Origin: an uncultured Chloroflexota bacterium
GTDB lineage: Bacteria; Chloroflexota; Dehalococcoidia; GIF9; AB-539-J10
Reading direction: 5' to 3'
Assembly (NCBI GenBank): GCA_903884455.1
Contig: CAISEW010000003.1
Span: 41,313 to 105,312 of the forward strand
DNA length: 64,000 nucleotides
The notes beneath the pieces were generated by a model. It was given only the letters and a program-made list of their open reading frames with translations. It ran no database searches and was not told the DNA's origin. How positions within the stretch are numbered: position 1 is the first letter of the stretch; each line of letters opens with the position of its first letter. Both the position numbers and the translations under genes were made by a program. Positions 3,587 to 28,734 of the stretch are shown here, in pieces.

Positions 3587-6256
3587 GTGACTGGTGACGA
3601 ACTAAGGCAAGCCTTTCTGAGTTTTTTTCAGGATAGAGGACATAAGATTATCCCCAGCTCCTCCTTGGTGCCTCATAAAGACCCCACTTTGCTGTTGACT
3701 AGCGCTGGCATGGTGCAAATTAAACCATATTTCCTGGGATTGGAGGCCCCACCTAGCCGGCGATTAGCTTCCTGCCAGAAGTGCTTTCGCACCACTGATA
3801 TAGATTCGGTGGGTGATAGCAAACACCTTACCTTTTTCGAGATGCTGGGCAATTTCAGCGTTGGCGACTATTTTAAAAAAGAAGCTATTTTGTGGGCGTG
3901 GGACTTTGTTACCAAGTATTTGAAACTGCCTGAGGAGCGGCTCTGGATAACTATTTACCGTGACGATGACGAAGCTTTCGCCTATTGGCGACAAATTGGC
4001 GTCCCCGCTGGGAAGATATTGCGATTCGGTGAAGAAGACAACTTCTGGGGTCCCGTTGGTGATTCTGGTCCCTGTGGACCATGCAGCGAGATTCACTATG
4101 ACCTTGGTGAAGAGTTTGGCTGTGGTAAAGCTGAATGTAAGCCTAATTGCGACTGCGGTCGCTTCTCCGAGATATGGAATCTGGTATTCACCCAATACAA
4201 TCAAGACCAAAGTGGACAACGCACTCCTCTACCCAACCCCAACATTGATACTGGTATGGGACTGGAGAGAACTTTAGCCGCTATTCAGGACAAGCCCTCC
4301 CCTTATGAAACAGCCCTGTTTTCTCCTTTGGTAGACCGAATTTGTCGCTTGTCTGGGAAAGAATACAGTCGGGGTGAGAATACCGACCGAGCCATTAGAA
4401 TTGTGGCTGAGCATTCACGCGGCATTGCCTTTCTTGTCGCCGATGGCGTAATGCCTTCCAACGAAGGCAGGGGATATGTCCTGCGACGAATACTCAGGCG
4501 GGCTTCGCTCTTCGGCAGGAAACTGGGATTAAGTGACCCTTTCCTTAATGAAATGGCTGAAGTCGTCGTTAGCACAATGAGCCATATATATCCCGAGCTT
4601 ATAGCTAATCAGAGCCTGATTACCGAAGTAATTAAGGTCGAGGAGGGAAAGTTCATTGCTACCCTGGATACCGGCCTCAACTTGGTGGAAAAGCTCATTG
4701 GCGAAGCTTCAGCTCAAGGGAGAGAAGGGCTGACAGGCGTCGAAGTATTCCAGCTTTACGATACCTATGGTTTTCCCCCTGAATTGACTGCTGAGATAAC
4801 CAGAGAAAAAGGCCTATCTATAGACTGGGAAGGTTTCCAGACTGAGATGGAGAGACAGCGAGAAAGGGCTAGGGTCAGCCAAAAGATCGGCACGGGGGGT
4901 GTTCAATTGAAAGCCGAGTACAAGGCTAAGACCATGCGTAGGGTCGTACGTAAGCAAACACATTTTGTTGGCTATCAAAAATACAGATCTAGGTCAAAGA
5001 TCCGCGATTTGATAATTAAAGAAAACTCTATGCGAGGTGTGGCTGAAGGTATTGAGGTTGACGTGATTCTTGACAGAACTCCTTTCTATGGTGAGATGGG
5101 CGGGCAGGTAGGCGATAGTGGCGAAATCGATAGCCAGAAGGGAAAGGTAGTCGTCATAAATACTATCAGAACTCCTTCGAACATGATAATACATAGGGGA
5201 AAGGTGGTTAAAGGGAGTATATCTATCGGTGACGAAGTGGAAGCCAAGGTTGATGTCGCCCGCCGCCTGGATATCGCTCGCAACCATACTGCCACTCATC
5301 TCATTCAGGCTGCTTTAAGGCAGACTTTGGGAAGCCATATTTACCAGAAGGGTTCGCTAGTAGAGCCTGAAAGGTTTAGATTTGACTTCTCTCACTTAGC
5401 TCCCATAACTGAGGAAAAGTTCAAGGAAATTCAGAGGCAGGTGAATGAATGGATACGCCAGAACTTGAAAGTGAAAGCAAAAAAACTCTCTTATACACAG
5501 GCCATCGCTGAGGGTGCTATTGCCTTATTTGAAGAAAAATACGGAGAAGAAGTTCGGATGCTGGAAATCGGGGAGCCGGCAATAAGTAAAGAACTCTGTG
5601 GTGGCACTCACGTGAGTTCAACGGGAGAAATTGGCATATTCTTGATAACCAGTGAAAGCAGCATTGGCACAGGACTGCATCGTATTGAAGCGGTAACGGG
5701 AAGAAAAGCTGAATCTCTAATTGAATCCCGTGTAGCAGCCTTGCAGAGCGTAGCCAAGGAAGTAGAAGGCTCGCTCGAAGAGGTTCCTAGCAAGGTGAGA
5801 GCTCTCATTAGCGAGCTAGGGGCAGAGCGTAAGAGAGTGCTTTCACTGGAAAGGGAGCTATCACGCAGAATAGCGGAGGATTTGCCTGAGCAAGCCGAGC
5901 AGGTGAGCGGTGTGACAGTTCTGGCTGCCAAGGTACCAACATTGACCCTGCCTATCCTCAGGGAAATGGGCGATATATTGCGAGACAGGCTAAAGAGCGC
6001 CATAGTGGTTTTGGCTACAGTTTATAATGGCAAGCCGAACTTTTTAGCCATGGTGACTCCTGACCTGATAGCCAGGGGATTTTACGCCGGCGATATTATT
6101 AATCAGGTAGCTAAGGTTACTGGTGGGGGTGGGGGTGGCAAGGCTGCTATGGCTCAAGCCGGCGGAAAAGATGCAGCCAAGGTTGACGAAGCTTTGAAAT
6201 TAGTCAAAAGTGTCATTGCAAGCCAAATCTCTATTTCCTCAGAGGGTAAAGATTAA
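3587..6256 (+). CDS. alaS: Alanine--tRNA ligase
   Basis: 889 aa. N-terminus RQAFLSFFQDRGH, editing-domain HxxxH motifs, C-terminal Gly-rich DHHA1 tail. GTG start. Confidence 0.95.
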   Translation: MTGDELRQAFLSFFQDRGHKIIPSSSLVPHKDPTLLLTSAGMVQIKPYFLGLEAPPSRRLASCQKCFRTTDIDSVGDSKHLTFFEMLGNFSVGDYFKKEAILWAWDFVTKYLKLPEERLWITIYRDDDEAFAYWRQIGVPAGKILRFGEEDNFWGPVGDSGPCGPCSEIHYDLGEEFGCGKAECKPNCDCGRFSEIWNLVFTQYNQDQSGQRTPLPNPNIDTGMGLERTLAAIQDKPSPYETALFSPLVDRICRLSGKEYSRGENTDRAIRIVAEHSRGIAFLVADGVMPSNEGRGYVLRRILRRASLFGRKLGLSDPFLNEMAEVVVSTMSHIYPELIANQSLITEVIKVEEGKFIATLDTGLNLVEKLIGEASAQGREGLTGVEVFQLYDTYGFPPELTAEITREKGLSIDWEGFQTEMERQRERARVSQKIGTGGVQLKAEYKAKTMRRVVRKQTHFVGYQKYRSRSKIRDLIIKENSMRGVAEGIEVDVILDRTPFYGEMGGQVGDSGEIDSQKGKVVVINTIRTPSNMIIHRGKVVKGSISIGDEVEAKVDVARRLDIARNHTATHLIQAALRQTLGSHIYQKGSLVEPERFRFDFSHLAPITEEKFKEIQRQVNEWIRQNLKVKAKKLSYTQAIAEGAIALFEEKYGEEVRMLEIGEPAISKELCGGTHVSSTGEIGIFLITSESSIGTGLHRIEAVTGRKAESLIESRVAALQSVAKEVEGSLEEVPSKVRALISELGAERKRVLSLERELSRRIAEDLPEQAEQVSGVTVLAAKVPTLTLPILREMGDILRDRLKSAIVVLATVYNGKPNFLAMVTPDLIARGFYAGDIINQVAKVTGGGGGGKAAMAQAGGKDAAKVDEALKLVKSVIASQISISSEGKD

Positions 6257-23384: not shown

Positions 23385-23409
23385 TTACCACTGGACAAAC
23401 ATTGGGATG
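23385..23409. repeat. Left direct repeat (attL-like): displaced duplicate of the dnaN 3' terminus
   Basis: TTACCACTGGACAAACATTGGGATG versus 27404-27428 TTACCACTGAACAAACAT-GGGCATG. In the minus frame it encodes ...IPMFVQW*, matching the dnaN C-terminus ...MPMFVQW*. Confidence 0.7.
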
Positions 23410-23439
23410 TTAGCCATTCCATGCGTATGTCGCAATGGT

Positions 23440-24288
23440 CTAGCGGCGCTTTGGTTTTTGGCCTAGACCCCATCCTTTTTGACAAGTTCGGAGTATTTTT
23501 GCCTTTTCTTGTTCGGTATATTCAAAGAAATAACTCCTGAATTCGAACATATCGTAAGGGCCCATAATAACAAAGAACTTGCCTTTGGTAGCAAAAAACA
23601 GAGGATTAATATCGCGGCGAACGACATCGGCTAGCCAATTAGCTGCTTTCGTGGCCTCTTTAACGTGGTTTTGGCATTTACTTTGCCAATCCTCATATTC
23701 TTTGAAAAGCTGCCGATATTCTTCTTGTTGTAGCCAGCCTTTAGATTTGTAGAATTTTTCTTCAACCAGTACGCCGTCTGTAGTCTTGCTAGGTTGAGAG
23801 TGTTGAAGAAATGTCTGGTTAGCTTCGTAAATCTCATGTGTCAGTTTTTTCAAAGCACATTCTAGCTCAGGTAGAGTCTTTGGCCATATTGCACCAAGTA
23901 TCTTATTATAGAAAGCGAATAGTCTGACAGATGCGGATTCATCCCAGTTCATATTAACAGATAGTGCTCGAGTCGCCCACTTATCCCAGGTACTAAGCTG
24001 ACAGGCTTCTACGGCGGCATCTATCAAATCTGCATAGATGACGGATTGAGCAGTCGTGGTAGAGTCTTTTGATTGTGAGAGGGTGCGTTCTACCCAGTAT
24101 TCGTGTTGGTCTTTAAAGAGGTGTAGCTTCTCAACCGTATAGTCCTGAGGATTCTTGTCGACCAATGTATGATGAGTGGGACAGAGTAGAATGAGATTGA
24201 AATAGGAGTTTCTTTCTCTCTTGGTCAGATTGCTCTTTCCTCTGGCGTCGTTTTTGCCAAGTCCGACAATATGTGCCTGTTCCCCCAA
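23440..24288 (-). CDS. HNH-endonuclease-domain protein with a roughly 200-aa uncharacterized C-terminal domain; N-terminus apparently disrupted
   Basis: HNH core AHIVGLGK...N...LILLCPTHH. The first Cys pair (CSFPDCE) lies upstream of the track start in the same frame. The only upstream ATG (24423, AAGAGG SD) is followed three codons later by an in-frame TAA (24412-24414). Confidence 0.55.
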   Translation of the reverse strand: MGEQAHIVGLGKNDARGKSNLTKRERNSYFNLILLCPTHHTLVDKNPQDYTVEKLHLFKDQHEYWVERTLSQSKDSTTTAQSVIYADLIDAAVEACQLSTWDKWATRALSVNMNWDESASVRLFAFYNKILGAIWPKTLPELECALKKLTHEIYEANQTFLQHSQPSKTTDGVLVEEKFYKSKGWLQQEEYRQLFKEYEDWQSKCQNHVKEATKAANWLADVVRRDINPLFFATKGKFFVIMGPYDMFEFRSYFFEYTEQEKAKILRTCQKGWGLGQKPKRR

Positions 24289-24516
24289 AGGGAAGCTCTG
24301 AGAAGCCGAGCTTTTGTCCTGGGTCAGCTTGATTTCACAATCAGGGAACGAACATCTTTCAGCTGCCCTTCCCCAAAGTAACTTTATGTCTTTTTGTGCT
24401 ATGTAGATGGTTTAATGCTCCATATTGAATTGATTCTACCTCTTATTGCACCAACATGGGGATGTCTGCCCTTACATGAATGCGTTAGTAGAGGTTTTGT
24501 GTAAGGTCTAATATTA

Positions 24517-25416
24517 TTACTTTTTACTTTGTCCTGTAACATATCTTTTCTTCAGGTTTACAAGTTGATTGTTACGCTTCTGCAACTGGATGCGGATATC
24601 ATCCCAATTCAAAAAGATTGGTATCTCTTCTATTTTAGTTTTGCCATCGAATACGTAGGCAGTGAGTCCCAAGGGGTCTTTTTTATAAACTTCTCTGTAG
24701 TCATCTATAGCTGTTTGTATGGTCGACCTTGCTTCGTTGACACTTTTGGAGGTCATTTGTCGCACTTTATTATGAATTGAACTTAATGCTTCTATATAAC
24801 CTCTTGAAGCAGAAATCAAATCGACCTTGTCTGGCATTTCGTCTAATACCTGTTTCTTAAAACTGCCGTCTGAAGATATAAATTTTCTATCAGCGGAAAA
24901 ACTTGATGAAAACTCCAGTAGACCGCTGATATCAAGAGCAGTCCACCTGCTTCCAAATGCTACCTGGTGAACGGGAGTGCCACTATGTTGGGTGTAGTTT
25001 CTTAAAGCTTCCATAAACCTATAGTCGAAATTTCTATCATACTCAGTTGAACGTAACAATTTTAATCGGTCCTTAATTCCGGTCTCTCTTGGTAAACACG
25101 CACAACAATGGTCAGTCAATCTGTCGGTATAAAGCCTTACTGACGTTAGCAAATTCATGAGCTGTCTGTTCACGGCAAGCCGAGCATCAAAAGAATCAAT
25201 ATACCCACGATAGTTTCGAACCATATATGATATTGAGGCGTTTGTCGACTCCTTTTCCAAATCAATATAGTTGGAAATCATCATTTCGTATTCTTCCTCC
25301 AACTGTAACGCCTCGGCGAGAATATCTCTTGATGCTTTGAGAAGTGAGAATCTCTGACTATCAATAGTTAGTGGTGGAGAATCCCCGAGCGCATTAAGTC
25401 TCAAAAAATATTCCAT
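24517..25416 (-). CDS. Hypothetical protein with an HEPN/Abi-like R-x4-H motif (ALRNYTQHSG)
   Basis: 299 aa, low GC, upstream of and co-oriented with the HNH gene. The Rx4H motif is characteristic of HEPN RNases (AbiD/AbiF-like). Confidence 0.45.
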   Translation of the reverse strand: MEYFLRLNALGDSPPLTIDSQRFSLLKASRDILAEALQLEEEYEMMISNYIDLEKESTNASISYMVRNYRGYIDSFDARLAVNRQLMNLLTSVRLYTDRLTDHCCACLPRETGIKDRLKLLRSTEYDRNFDYRFMEALRNYTQHSGTPVHQVAFGSRWTALDISGLLEFSSSFSADRKFISSDGSFKKQVLDEMPDKVDLISASRGYIEALSSIHNKVRQMTSKSVNEARSTIQTAIDDYREVYKKDPLGLTAYVFDGKTKIEEIPIFLNWDDIRIQLQKRNNQLVNLKKRYVTGQSKK

Positions 25417-25756
25417 TGTACTAGTTAATTAATTTCATTTTTATACGATAGGGTTAGTTGTCATGTGGAATATTATGTACTGAATGGTAAAATACTTCAA
25501 TATGGAAAAATGAAGCGATCGACTTAAGGAGTGAATAAAATTAAGACTGTAGCGGAAAACCATTCATGGTTTAGAGGCACTCCTTATTACTGGGCATCCG
25601 CATCATTACCTTTAGCATATGCGGTGGCGTGTGTTGAAGTTGCTTGTGAAATGTCAAGAAAAGCCAGCTACTCACCTGGTTGACGAGGCTATCAAGATGG
25701 GTGCAAAAATTGTTTCGGTTGGTATTGGAAAACTCGGGTATCGCGTAAAAAGGGTA

Positions 25757-25785
25757 TTGACAAAAAATCAGAATAGTATTACTAT
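25757..25785 (+). promoter_or_regulatory. Promoter TTGACA-17-TACTAT for the gene at 25844
   Basis: Hexamers and spacing read directly. AGGGGGTG SD 8 nt before the ATG. Confidence 0.55.
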
Positions 25786-25826
25786 ATAGTAGCGCTATTG
25801 TTTATATACAACAGTAGTAATACTAT
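25773..25826. promoter_or_regulatory. Pair of near-identical palindromic operator-like sites (ATAGTATTACTAT / AGTAGTAATACTAT) bracketing the -10 and +20 region
   Basis: Each site is internally palindromic around AGTAwTACT. The two form an inverted repeat about 40 bp apart. Confidence 0.5.
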
Positions 25827-25843
25827 AAAGGGGGTGAATTTTC

Positions 25844-26446
25844 ATGGATAAGACACAATTAGCTAAGTGGAAGGAAGAAATAGAAATGGAATTAGCTGAG
25901 GTTGAGAAACAACTAACAGTGATAGAAAAGGAGCGAGCCGCACTTAAGGCGCAACTGGGAGCGGTTAGGACACTACTTTCTCCAACGGAAGAAATAACCG
26001 CAATTGAGAATTATGAAGTGAGAGACCTTGTAGGTGCGTTCATAGCAGATTTGAAAGTGAATGGTTGGTCTGTTCGGAAGCATGCAGGGAAAATTAGGAG
26101 CTATGACGCGAACCGAGGCGGTCAAAGTGTTGAACTGTGGATAATATTCAGTAAATTTCACGAGGTAAGCGAACGATATTGGTTTGGTGTGAATCCAGAC
26201 CATCTTGAAAATAGGAATGGCGGGGTTATCTTGCTGCTCGGTACTCACAAGAAGTACATTTGCTTGCCGTTTACTAAACTACAGGAGATGCTGGAGCGTT
26301 CAAAGAATACGATAACTGGCAAGAAATTCGTGGTAAGGGAGAAAAGCGGGCAAGTTGAGCTCCAGCCTGCAGGAATCGGCGGCAAATGGATAAATGTTAC
26401 CGAGTACTTAAATGAGGAAGGGCTAAAGAGAATTGGTATTAACTAA
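25844..26446 (+). CDS. Hypothetical protein, N-terminal coiled coil plus a C-terminal globular domain
   Basis: 200 aa, strong SD, islet cargo; no recognisable family. Confidence 0.55.
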   Translation: MDKTQLAKWKEEIEMELAEVEKQLTVIEKERAALKAQLGAVRTLLSPTEEITAIENYEVRDLVGAFIADLKVNGWSVRKHAGKIRSYDANRGGQSVELWIIFSKFHEVSERYWFGVNPDHLENRNGGVILLLGTHKKYICLPFTKLQEMLERSKNTITGKKFVVREKSGQVELQPAGIGGKWINVTEYLNEEGLKRIGIN

Positions 26447-26470
26447 GAACAAGAAGGAAGTAAATAGAAA

Positions 26471-26581
26471 ATGATGAAAGTAGCTATCTATTGCCGTGTA
26501 AGCACTGAAGGTCAAGAACAGTGTCCAAAATGCCGTTCTCCTTATTGGAATAAGCCGAAACGGAAGGGAATAACTAAGTAA
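26471..26581 (+). pseudogene. Relic of a large serine recombinase: 36-aa ORF joining the catalytic N-terminus (AIYCRVSTEGQEQ) to a C-terminal zinc-ribbon remnant (CPKCRSPYWNKPKRKG)
   Basis: The RVST-x2-Q N-terminal signature is followed directly by a CxxC zinc-ribbon tail, implying a large internal deletion. Its stop overlaps the next gene's ATG (TAATG). Confidence 0.55.
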
Positions 26582-27177
26582 TGAATATTAAGGTAACCCC
26601 TGCACCCGCAAAAGCAGCAGCCGCTACTCATCCACCGACAATAGCAATGCGGAAAGAACTGTATATATTGATGTATGACGTAGCCCAAAAACATAGGGAT
26701 GAAGCAAAAAAAGTTGATGGCAAAAATCAGACTGAAGAAATTCAGCATTCAATGATATGTATTTTATTCTGCTATACATGTTTGGAAGCATTCATCAATA
26801 CTGTCGGAAAAGACAAGCTAGGTGAGATATGGGAGGAAAAATGGGGGAAATATAGGAGACCTCAAACTGAGGGTAAATGGATGGGAGTGTCCAATCTTCT
26901 ATCAAACAAGAAACACAGAAAACCACACTCGGTTTTCAAAAATAGCGAGGATCCCTTCAAGTCATTTCTATATTTAGAGAAAATCAGAGAAGATTATTTA
27001 GTCCATAGAAAAGCGGAATTTAGCGAAGTTGTTAAAACAAAATATGGAAACACCGAGGGGACAATAAACATTTTGAATGCTAATACAGCAGATTGGGCTT
27101 GCAAAACGGTAAAACAAATGGTGCTTAAACTAGTTGAGAATATGGATGACGCGCCAGAAGTGAAGTGGGTTAAATAA
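26581..27177 (+). CDS. Hypothetical protein (198 aa) with a possible HEPN-like R-x5-H motif (IREDYLVHRK)
   Basis: ORF within the islet; no housekeeping similarity. Confidence 0.5.
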   Translation: MNIKVTPAPAKAAAATHPPTIAMRKELYILMYDVAQKHRDEAKKVDGKNQTEEIQHSMICILFCYTCLEAFINTVGKDKLGEIWEEKWGKYRRPQTEGKWMGVSNLLSNKKHRKPHSVFKNSEDPFKSFLYLEKIREDYLVHRKAEFSEVVKTKYGNTEGTINILNANTADWACKTVKQMVLKLVENMDDAPEVKWVK

Positions 27178-27192
27178 TATTAGGAATAAAAA

Positions 27193-27351
27193 GTGAAAGC
27201 TGCAATCTACTGCCGTGTAAGCACTGAAGGGCAAGAGCAAGATGGCACAAGCCTGTAAACTCAACTGGAATCTTGCCGTAAATATTGCCAGGCTAGGCGG
27301 TATGAAGTCGGGCACGAGTTGAACGAAGCATGGTCCACCAGAAACGAATAG
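27193..27351 (+). pseudogene. Relic of a second large serine recombinase: N-terminal ~50 codons with an in-frame TAA, then truncated
   Basis: VKAAIYCRVSTEGQEQDGTSL-TAA-TQLESCRKYCQARRYEVGHELNEAWS fits the recombinase N-domain consensus (RVSTxxQ...SLxxQLExCRxYA...GxEV). About 39/45 nt identical to the 5' end of the other relic (26476-26520). Confidence 0.6.
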
Positions 27352-27385
27352 GCGTCTGATTTGCACCAGACGCCTGTTTCAATTT
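27350..27385 (+). terminator. Intrinsic terminator, probably bidirectional (also closes dnaN)
   Basis: AGGCGTCTG / CAGACGCCT 9-bp stem with an 8-nt loop, followed by GTTTCAATTT. T-rich on the other side as well. Confidence 0.55.
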
Positions 27386-27403
27386 ATGCGAAACTAAAAT
27401 CTA

Positions 27404-27428
27404 TTACCACTGAACAAACATGGGCATG
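27404..27428. repeat. Right direct repeat (attR-like): the functional 3' terminus of dnaN
   Basis: See the repeat feature at 23385-23409. Confidence 0.7.
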
Positions 27429-28540
27429 ACCACGTGAACATAATTGTCCACGCCTATAGGGCGAATAGTTCCCGGGCTTGAGGGGGTGGTGAGTTCTAGA
27501 GCGACTTGGGCTTGGGAAAGGACAGATAAAACATCGGAAAGATATCTTACATTAAAAGCGATTTTCGCCTCTTCTCCGTCAGTGAGAGCGTCCACTTCAC
27601 CAACATTGTCGCCAACCTCTTCAGCCTGAGCTGAAACAGTTATCTTTCCTGGAGCAAGTTCACTACCAGGGGTAATGACCAGGCGAACTATACCACTGGC
27701 ATCGCGAGCAAATATGGAGGACATTTTAGTAACCCGCAAAAATTCATTAATGTCCACTACAGCTCGCGTGGTATAGCTTTGAGGAATAACCTGGGAATAA
27801 TTGGGGAATGAACCTTGAATAAGCTGAGAAACCAGCTCAGCATCCTTGAGGCGGAAGAGAACCTGGCTCTTTTTTTCGTTTACGGTGATTTCTACGGGTT
27901 CCTCCTGTTCACCAATAAGGCGATTCAGTTCATTAAGGGTTCTCGCTGGGATGATAACCGTAGTCTTTTCTTTGACTGGTGAGCTAAGAGTTGTCTTATG
28001 AACAGCTAGCCTGAAGCCATCGGCAGCCGCCAGGTTGAGCTGCTCGCCATCGAATTCAGTGTTAATTCCGGTTAATACCGGGCGGGATTCTTCAGTGGCA
28101 GCAGCAAAGGCGACCTGCGCAATCCCTTCCCTGAGGCTAGCTGCCTCAATGGTGGTAGTTATGCCATCGTTTATCTGAGGGATAGGTGGGAAATCCGCGG
28201 CATCAATGCCATGAATATGAGCTTGAAAATGGCCGCTCTTAAGCTCCAGGATGCGACTGTTAGCGGGAAGATTGACTTCAATTAGGTCGTTGGGTAAGGA
28301 ATTAACAAAGTCGCTGAGCAAGCGAGCAGGTACAGTTATGTCTCCCTTCTGTTTCACTTTAGCACCAACCCAGCACGTGATAGCCATTTCCAGGTTGGTG
28401 GCTGACAATTTGAGACGTGATTGCTCAGCGGATAAAAGGATATTTTGGGTGATAGGTAAAGTGGACCTCGTGGCTACAGCTCTCCCTACAATGCTTAGCC
28501 CCCTATTTAAGTTTTCTTGAAGACAAGATAATTTCATGGA
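27404..28540 (-). CDS. dnaN: DNA polymerase III beta subunit (sliding clamp)
   Basis: MKLSCLQENLNRGLSIV... three-domain clamp. The ORF is open to 28582, but the canonical start is MKLS at 28540. No dnaA is adjacent. Confidence 0.9.
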   Translation of the reverse strand, partial: SMKLSCLQENLNRGLSIVGRAVATRSTLPITQNILLSAEQSRLKLSATNLEMAITCWVGAKVKQKGDITVPARLLSDFVNSLPNDLIEVNLPANSRILELKSGHFQAHIHGIDAADFPPIPQINDGITTTIEAASLREGIAQVAFAAATEESRPVLTGINTEFDGEQLNLAAADGFRLAVHKTTLSSPVKEKTTVIIPARTLNELNRLIGEQEEPVEITVNEKKSQVLFRLKDAELVSQLIQGSFPNYSQVIPQSYTTRAVVDINEFLRVTKMSSIFARDASGIVRLVITPGSELAPGKITVSAQAEEVGDNVGEVDALTDGEEAKIAFNVRYLSDVLSVLSQAQVALELTTPSSPGTIRPIGVDNYVHVVMPMFVQW

Positions 28541-28734
28541 ATACCTCCCCCTCTGTGAATAATGACAGTATACTATCAACAAGTGTAATAATCAATGATT
28601 CTATTTGACATAATACTGGATTCGTTAAAGGCACATTACCACTGGTTATTATGGTTAAGCGAGCTTACTTTCTTAGCTGTAGGCTGGTATTTTCAATCTA
28701 ATAAACCCTCTGCTACAAGACCACCACGCTGTAA

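Follow-up and report, generated by a model that had tools for sequence, protein, structure and literature searches.

Why should a gene of 198 codons lie between two short open reading frames (ORFs), each of which opens like a large serine recombinase (LSR) gene and neither of which goes on as one? The two ORFs, here termed relic A and relic B, are on a 64,000-nucleotide stretch of DNA (the window) from an uncultured Chloroflexota bacterium (assembly GCA_903884455.1, contig CAISEW010000003.1, positions 41,313 to 105,312), which was compared with a set of related loci labelled L001-L034. As judged from their sequences, the relics are the leftover front ends of two different LSR genes. Both lie inside a low-GC island of ~4 kb (23410-27403) that abuts dnaN, and the reading that we hold to be quite probable is that this island is a decayed composite of two related LSR-mobilised elements at the dnaN 3' end, joined by a microhomology deletion. 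The original prediction had suggested two insertion events, and a composite of two elements is also what best accounts for the evidence below.

How good is the case that recombinase genes are involved at all? For relic B it is direct. With its in-frame stop (TAA at 27256-27258, codon 22) read as Glu, it matches the Pfam Resolvase profile PF00239 over positions 1-43 of 145 with 32.2 bits (cut-off 23.3 bits; E=1.4e-7), and the N-terminal resolvase catalytic domain with its catalytic Ser motif (..YxRVSTxxQ..) is present. Relic A alone is a peptide too short to score (E=0.15 over 13 residues, below threshold), and that it too starts with an LSR N-terminus, as had been claimed for both ORFs, is established by the continuity of its DNA with an intact LSR gene in L034. 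The likeness of relic B to intact LSRs extends through codon 48 (27335), and over these 48 residues its identity to the L004 LSR is 71% (tblastn); except for its first four residues and the stop codon it is the N-terminus of the L021 LSR up to ...HELNEAWS, with 90.8% identity over 142 nt to the 5' end of that gene (blastn), and then diverges, the ORF past the break reading TRNE*. A continuation of the recombinase in other frames was sought at relic B and none was found, the recombinase domain PF07508 and the zinc beta-ribbon PF13408 are not present in one frame downstream of it, and tblastn of a full LSR across the whole window gave nothing past codon 48. Because no LSR sequence follows that codon and a TAA stands at codon 22, relic B is a pseudogene fragment and not a functional LSR.

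The origin of relic A is more involved, as it has two halves, called X and Z'. Window 25661-26520 matches L034 7730-8590 at 93% over 861 nt, which covers the C-terminus of a Rep-like gene, a 200-aa gene, an identical 24-nt spacer and the first ~16-17 LSR codons with their double-Met start, and the match stops exactly at 26520/26521, past which L034 goes on as an intact 511-aa LSR. Since this contiguous match runs into an intact LSR, X descends from an LSR gene. The Z' tail has its counterpart in a 45-aa zinc-ribbon gene of L004 (tblastn E=2.6e-9), and its DNA is nearly identical to the intact L028 zinc-ribbon gene from a common AACAG onward; the L028 gene reads …gccaaAACAG followed by TGTCCAAAATGCCGTTCTCC…, and the LSR 5' end reads …gtcaagAACAG followed by GATGG…. 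As zinc-ribbon genes of the R subtype and the LSR 5' end both have AACAG there, the junction is placed within this 5-nt microhomology. A crossover at CAAGAAC, common to zinc-ribbon genes of the N subtype and the LSR, was considered and rejected, being 9 nt out of register where the R subtype gives the exact AACAG junction.

A full version of the module to which the second half and relic B belong is seen in L004 and L005, where the order is zinc-ribbon gene, 199-aa homolog of the 198-aa protein, and LSR; the 45-aa zinc-ribbon ORF (MINIYNCLRCKHEWAGRLDRAPKVCPKCKSPYWNKPKWKGIKKNG) overlaps the start of the homolog, and a full 518-aa LSR, beginning MKVAIYCRVSTEGQEQDGTSLQTQLEAC..., starts 19 nt past it. 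From this layout, together with tblastn, it follows that the tail of relic A is the C-terminal half of the small zinc-ribbon gene and that relic B is the module's own LSR. In the window the TAA of relic A (26579-26581) shares one base with the ATG of the 198-aa ORF (26581-27177), an overlap that the original prediction had read correctly along with the TAA at 27256, and the window, L015, L007 and L011 all keep the 16-nt spacer from the 198-aa gene to the LSR start.

Could the resemblance of the two relics have a simpler source? Their 5' ends, described earlier as about 87 percent identical, form a 46-nt direct repeat (26475-26520 and 27194-27239) at 87% identity, whose exact 20-nt core is found only at these two places in 64 kb, with 0 expected by chance. 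Direct copies 719 nt apart would suit a recent local duplication of an LSR 5' end within one element. However, the similarity begins at the start codon, the upstream spacers are unrelated, and the 8 differences over 48 nt from the start codon are mostly synonymous (five, with two more in one Val/Ala codon and one in the start codon). Each copy moreover has a closer relative elsewhere, relic A in L034-type elements, with their 861 nt, and relic B in those of the L021, L028 and L032 type, which contradicts such an event; we give it hardly any chance, and the earlier view of two recombinases in place of a recent duplication stands. The same cannot be said of the earlier view that relic A is a single LSR with its interior lost and its N-terminus fused to its own C-terminal zinc ribbon. 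A CxxC motif does follow the LSR N-terminus in relic A, and a zinc-ribbon domain is indeed part of LSRs (Pfam Zn_ribbon_recom in L021), but the zinc ribbons of the family LSRs read ...CGYCGSPLVGS...YYYCRG..., not CPKCRSPYWNKPK as internal deletion needs, and have no match in the window. The tail is instead homologous to the C-terminal half of an independent 42-45-aa gene, by the E value and by the DNA from AACAG on, and this gene stands upstream of the same cargo in L004. The internal deletion is thereby refuted, and next to no weight is left to it.

Is the DNA that holds the relics an integrated island, and might it still move? Its GC is 0.37-0.43 against 0.45-0.51 in the flanks, where Pfam identifies a response regulator and a histidine kinase to the left and dnaN with malQ to the right, in a host genome of Dehalococcoidia-like type. 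The 25-nt att repeat recognised earlier is real (23385-23409 and 27404-27428, 22/25), though a third copy between the relics, proposed as a sign of tandem elements, is absent: there are two copies only in the window and no other within 3 mismatches. The left core is a displaced dnaN 3' end that encodes IPMFVQW* on the minus strand, and the element arm next to it has been kept in L021, L025 (three copies), L028 and L024; at attL-type copies, the window's included, the conserved element-side arm is GGGATGTTTGCCCTTCCATGCGTACGT. At the right copy the LSR-side arm of attR, GATTCGTACGTAC, was sought and is missing. The repeat of the target's 3' end at both boundaries, the foreign composition and the occupation of the same site by intact elements in relatives mark an integrative island. 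Excision calls for an intact recombinase and two complete att sites; both LSR copies here are stumps and the LSR-side arm of attR is gone. The island, left with half an attR and without a recombinase, is therefore fixed in place. A likeness of X to the att core was also looked at; the 7-mer CACTGAA is all that they have in common, and it was judged to be chance.

The LSR family to which the relics belong has >1000 members in Chloroflexota/Dehalococcoidia, and the backbone of its intact elements is a ~295-aa gene, a ~83-aa gene, a Rep-like gene, an optional small zinc-ribbon gene, one cargo gene and the LSR. In L028/L029, L030 and L032/L033 intact LSRs of 503-517 aa overlap the dnaN 3' end tail-to-tail by ~26 nt, with the att core inside the overlap, and the host flanks of L030 and L032 are those of the window. 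The last codons of the L021 LSR (…LTTGRTWG*) contain TCACCACTGGACGAACATGGGGATG, which matches the window att copies at 21-22/25 positions and on the other strand encodes …HVHVFIPMFVQW*, a mimic of the dnaN C-terminus. Since the attP core mimics the C-terminal codons of dnaN, integration would rebuild the end of an essential gene. An attP of ~54 bp can be reconstructed as GATTCGTACGTAC-TCACCACTGGACGAACATGGGGATG-TTTGCCCTTCCATGCGTACGTT, with CGTACG palindromes at both outer ends and the 25-nt core (L021 8334-8404 with L021 101-148; L025, L030), and it and the dnaN 3' end are taken as the putative attP and attB of the family LSRs. Terminal overlap, sought for L021 as a circular contig, was not found.

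Tandem accretion does occur in this family. Left of its intact element L025 has three further attL-type copies (1768-1812, 2563-2610 and 3846-3890), each of which bounds a single gene (DUF2812, a 142-aa gene and a Glug protein); the dnaN site of L025 has accumulated older, stripped-down islands in tandem.

What became of the remainder of the LSR of relic B? By comparison with L032, 70 nt in the window stand for ~1.37 kb, from LSR codon 49 to the end together with the LSR-side att arm. The truncation at the relic B break is common to the related islands L007, L015-L019 and L024, whose truncated LSRs carry two common stop codons absent from the window; the TAA at codon 22 is the window's own. 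That the hairpin within the 70 nt could be the native downstream arm of dnaN (attB) was rejected, as the host-side arm at left att copies (…CCAAATACCAAACAAG) differs. Where the window has 45 nt including the hairpin, L015 has a hicAB module between the truncated LSR and dnaN (864-1357) and L016 has hicB alone (1741-2007), so the segment replacing the LSR 3' part varies among strains. In L001 (6600-6740) a 197-aa homolog is accompanied by an LSR stump that ends earlier, at ~codon 24, and by part of the hairpin seen in the window (23 nt at 95.7% identity); the neighbours of that homolog include no recognisable dnaN.

From what is directly visible, namely homologies, breakpoints, the layout of the att sites and intact relatives integrated at this site, we would derive the following order of events, for which two elements, E1 and E2, should once have been in tandem. 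E1, of L034 type (Rep, 200-aa gene, LSR), would have been joined to E2 (zinc-ribbon gene, 198-aa gene of HEPN type, LSR) with loss of what lay between codon 17/18 of the LSR of E1 and ~codon 24 of the zinc-ribbon gene of E2, and such a fusion deletion would have removed whatever junction once lay between the elements. Relic A would thus retain the ribosome-binding site and start codon of the E1 LSR, and the stop/start overlap of the zinc-ribbon gene with the HEPN gene. The E2 LSR would have lost its ~1.37 kb, with 70 nt and a terminator hairpin in its place, and the nonsense codon would have come later. Relic A is now probably only a translated leader for the HEPN gene.

Relic A has counterparts elsewhere. 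A junction-pattern scan found the same fusion, EGQE[Q/R] joined to CPK[C/W], in one Dehalococcoidia metagenome-assembled genome and 8 metagenome contigs, and three further loci came from 198-aa contexts (L008 and L009 with the full junction, L015 ending at a contig edge within X); in viral contigs the pattern had 0 matches. The 44-aa L007 version of the mini-ORF has one match only in a protein-database search, so such small ORFs are mostly not called. Most chimera loci are dnaN islands with the same truncated LSR; one copy (L021) is upstream of an intact LSR, and 1/7 distinct intact elements carries the chimera. It stands between different cargo genes, twice in L007 and with an additional decayed copy in L017; what comes before each X is part of the cargo gene on that side, and Z' goes with the cargo gene after it. 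The identical junction is found with at least 8 contexts on its upstream side and at least 5 on its downstream side, and islands (L007 vs the window, L007 vs L008) differ by whole [Z'-cargo-X] blocks. All the chimeras are of one DNA subtype, which is not that of most intact zinc-ribbon genes. Every copy is open, its stop abutting or overlapping the start of the next gene, and every chimera or zinc-ribbon ORF ends at or overlaps such a start. Between unrelated contexts the homology covers the mini-ORF only, with edges at its start and stop; the use of these edges to tell site-specific from homologous recombination was rejected, since both models predict them there.

Several individual loci deserve mention. 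The near-identical islands of L008 (4636-5100) and L007 (4858-5440) differ only after the second chimera, which is followed in L008 by a second 198-like paralog (called as 108 aa, possibly disrupted) and in L007 by an unrelated 150-aa gene. L017 (~4100-4180, minus strand) has a third X block and then a chimera tail that has lost ~25 nt internally and is frameshifted (KALIYCRVSTEGQEWDGISQSGRG*), from which it is evident that chimeras decay too. In L016 (2072-3370, minus strand), L018, L019 and L024 some of the cargo genes after the zinc-ribbon ORF or chimera encode multi-pass membrane proteins (190 and 205 aa) that match no family; the small ORF is thus not tied specifically to the HEPN protein.

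As the identical junction recurs in related islands, a single origin of the X::Z' fusion is probable, with later transfer from one cargo context to another through recombination in X and Z', and the window may have acquired it in this way, not by a deletion of its own. What speaks against the history proposed here? An unfused E1-E2 tandem was sought among the loci and none was found, the tandem intermediate being one that we infer. For a single origin, segments as short as ~50-60 nt must have recombined again and again, which is possible rather than demonstrated. At X positions 13-48 the window agrees with the chimera consensus at 36/36 and differs from L034 at 4/36, a hint, not statistically significant, of a crossover inside X. 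The leader role suggested for the mini-ORF is consistent with the L008 and L019 chimeras, which have lost the second Cys of the CxxC and yet are open, though this is no proof of it.

A more radical proposal would have the first ~16-17 LSR codons (X) serve as a recombination site in the manner of integrons, with circular [Z'-cargo-X] molecules inserting and excising there, each insertion rebuilding the LSR start and leaving an X::Z' translated leader before the new cargo. The same junction between many cargo genes, the constant assignment of the sequence before X to the preceding cargo and of Z' to the following one, the whole-block differences, the one array that ends in an intact LSR (L021) and the good conservation of the chimera X peptides are as such cassettes would have them. 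But homologous recombination predicts the same block structure, the att of the family (dnaN 3' core with CGTACG arms) is unlike X::Z', and one DNA subtype with a 5-nt microhomology junction is what a single illegitimate deletion is expected to give. The arrays are short (<=3 cassettes), the cassettes vary mostly where the LSR of the island has already become a pseudogene, and, as said, a single intact element of the seven has the chimera; LSRs are, besides, usually strictly site-specific. We think the cassettes decidedly improbable. Might the mini-ORF, whatever moved it, be kept by selection as a small protein, e.g., an antitoxin or regulator of the HEPN-fold protein? This is compatible with the composite origin favoured here, and a small gene that runs into the start of a HEPN-fold gene has the look of a toxin-antitoxin operon. 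In 10/10 copies examined the mini-ORF is open despite 5-20% DNA divergence, and X codons 5-16 show 1 amino-acid change among 9 chimeras where 9 truncated relics show 4, a comparison that is small and biased by a search pattern that fixed codons 11-16; the selection test on chimera and relic X peptides was discarded on that account. Against it, the chimera retains only the second CxxC pair of the zinc ribbon, and in two copies this pair too is short of a Cys; the same mini-ORF also stands before unrelated cargo, membrane proteins included. Such selection seems to us unlikely, if not negligibly so.

Features of the dnaN island in the window (coordinates are window positions; asterisks denote stops)
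Feature	Position	Strand	Remarks
Left att copy (attL type)	23385..23436		25-nt core 23385-23409, then conserved element arm GTTAGCCATTCCATGCGTATGT
HNH-endonuclease-like cargo ORF, 282 aa	23440..24288	-	Pfam HNH_2 E=8.2e-5
299-aa island gene	24517..25416	-	Common to L007 and L008
E1 backbone relics	25564..25786	+	N-terminal piece of ~295-aa gene (25564-25651) joined to C-terminal piece of Rep-like gene (25658-25786)
200-aa cargo gene of E1 (L034 type)	25844..26446	+	92% aa identity to L034 200-aa gene; dN/dS 0.22
Relic A ORF	26471-26581	+	36 codons, reads MMKVAIYCRVSTEGQEQCPKCRSPYWNKPKRKGITK
Relic A, X half	26471..26521	+	E1 LSR codons 1-17 (MMKVAIYCRVSTEGQEQ), including catalytic Ser region
Relic A, Z' half	26522..26581	+	Last 19 codons of small zinc-ribbon gene (CPKCRSPYWNKPKRKGITK*)
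198-aa cargo gene of E2	26581..27177	+	HEPN fold
Relic B	27193-27351	+	E2 LSR pseudogene; reads VKAAIYCRVSTEGQEQDGTSL*TQLESCRKYCQARRYEVGHELNEAWSTRNE*
GC-rich hairpin	27350..27375	-	Scored as intrinsic terminator on dnaN strand (terminator scan); part of 70-nt replacement
Right att core	27404..27428		Functional 3' end of dnaN (..PMFVQW*); LSR-side arm absent
dnaN	27404-28582	-	All three DNA_pol3_beta domains (Pfam)

Neither is the gene between the relics the orphan that it was first taken for. The 198-aa protein has 48 homologs, up to 87% identical, and shows the four-helix up-and-down arrangement of the HEPN fold; it is a conserved HEPN-type toxin/defence gene product of putative function. R136 and H142 are invariant across 34 sequences and spaced R-x5-H, and might correspond to the catalytic Rx4-6H motif of HEPN domains. 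A match to a curated HEPN sequence profile was not found in Pfam, PADLOC or PDB sequence search, and Foldseek against PDB and a search of Rfam were uninformative. In comparison with the HEPN toxins of toxin-antitoxin and abortive-infection systems (SO_3166, PDB 5yep; HEPN/MNT, PDB 7ae2; AbiV), the 198-aa protein is longer than the minimal HEPN domains, and where the partner in HEPN/MNT is the MNT nucleotidyltransferase, that of the 198-aa protein is the small zinc-ribbon ORF.

The gene content of the island as a whole is of defence-island type. The HNH-like ORF has a PADLOC match to PDC-M68A / HNH effector (E=2.7e-22); the match starts only near profile position 43 in PADLOC and 13 in Pfam, and the start codon is TTG; the ORF is probably truncated at its N-terminus. 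At the same island position are AbiGi in L007 and a PtuA/AriA-like ATPase in L016. The region of the 299-aa gene, for which a Pfam search gave no family, is 80.6% identical between window 24459-25766 and L007 1452-2767. The E1 backbone relics, with the peptides ...SLPLAYAVACVEV... (~295-aa gene) and ...PATHLVDEAIKMGAKIVSV... (Rep-like), have blastn matches in L021, L025, L032 and L034; their head-to-tail junction points to a further ~2 kb deletion within E1, and the same join is in L007 and L008. In L034 the 200-aa gene sits directly upstream of the intact LSR. Among other elements of the family, L021 has a complete type II restriction-modification system (Dam-like methylase, endonuclease and helix-turn-helix controller) between Rep and the chimera (3950-5815), and others carry AbiJ, AbiGi, AbiTii or SIR2 genes.

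Does the island have a described counterpart? The closest described system is the ssrA genomic islands of Dehalococcoides, which are mobilised by a CcrB-like serine integrase, DsiB (McMurdie et al. 2011, PMC3146451), have a 20-bp repeat of the essential gene's 3' end embedded in the integrase gene, and accrete in tandem, many without an integration module (PMC3146451). The dnaN island shares with them the bacterial class, a serine recombinase and a location at the 3' end of a single-copy essential gene, the ~20-25-nt repeat of the target 3' end embedded in the integrase gene, and tandem accretion. Unlike them its target is the protein-coding dnaN, not ssrA, with the element supplying a coding replacement for the last dnaN codons, and its backbone is a Rep-like gene with a small zinc-ribbon gene in contrast to their DsiA/RecF/ParB/Mom. 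A literature search for an LSR with an integration site in dnaN found no paper describing dnaN as an LSR target. The classical analogue is SCCmec (CcrAB, at the 3' end of orfX/rlmH), likewise an LSR island at a conserved gene's 3' end with direct repeats and tandem composites; SCC remnants lacking ccr are common. SCCmec has a CcrA/CcrB pair, whereas the dnaN element, from another phylum and far smaller at 4-8 kb, has a single LSR, the 5' end of which is fused to a neighbour gene. Integron arrays (IntI, attI/attC) also have cargo-sized blocks bounded by a short conserved repeat and end beside a recombinase gene, but theirs is the tyrosine recombinase IntI acting with folded attC, and in the dnaN islands the recombinase is of serine type, the repeat is a coding chimera of two genes and there are <=3 units; by this comparison the resemblance would be one of layout only. 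What is at hand is of a known kind, an ordinary decaying LSR island, with one curious recurring fusion.

Its value is as a well-resolved example of how a small integrative island decays. Were recombination truly to take place at X::Z', gene cassettes would there be put together in a new manner, by an LSR-run integron analogue in Dehalococcoidia defence islands. The intact relatives provide candidate LSRs with inferred attP/attB, which, if confirmed, may be of use as genome-engineering integrases. For the biology of these uncultured Dehalococcoidia, the comparison documents a family of serine-recombinase elements that occupies the dnaN 3' end and carries defence/toxin cargo, in parallel with the ssrA islands that move dehalogenase genes in Dehalococcoides.

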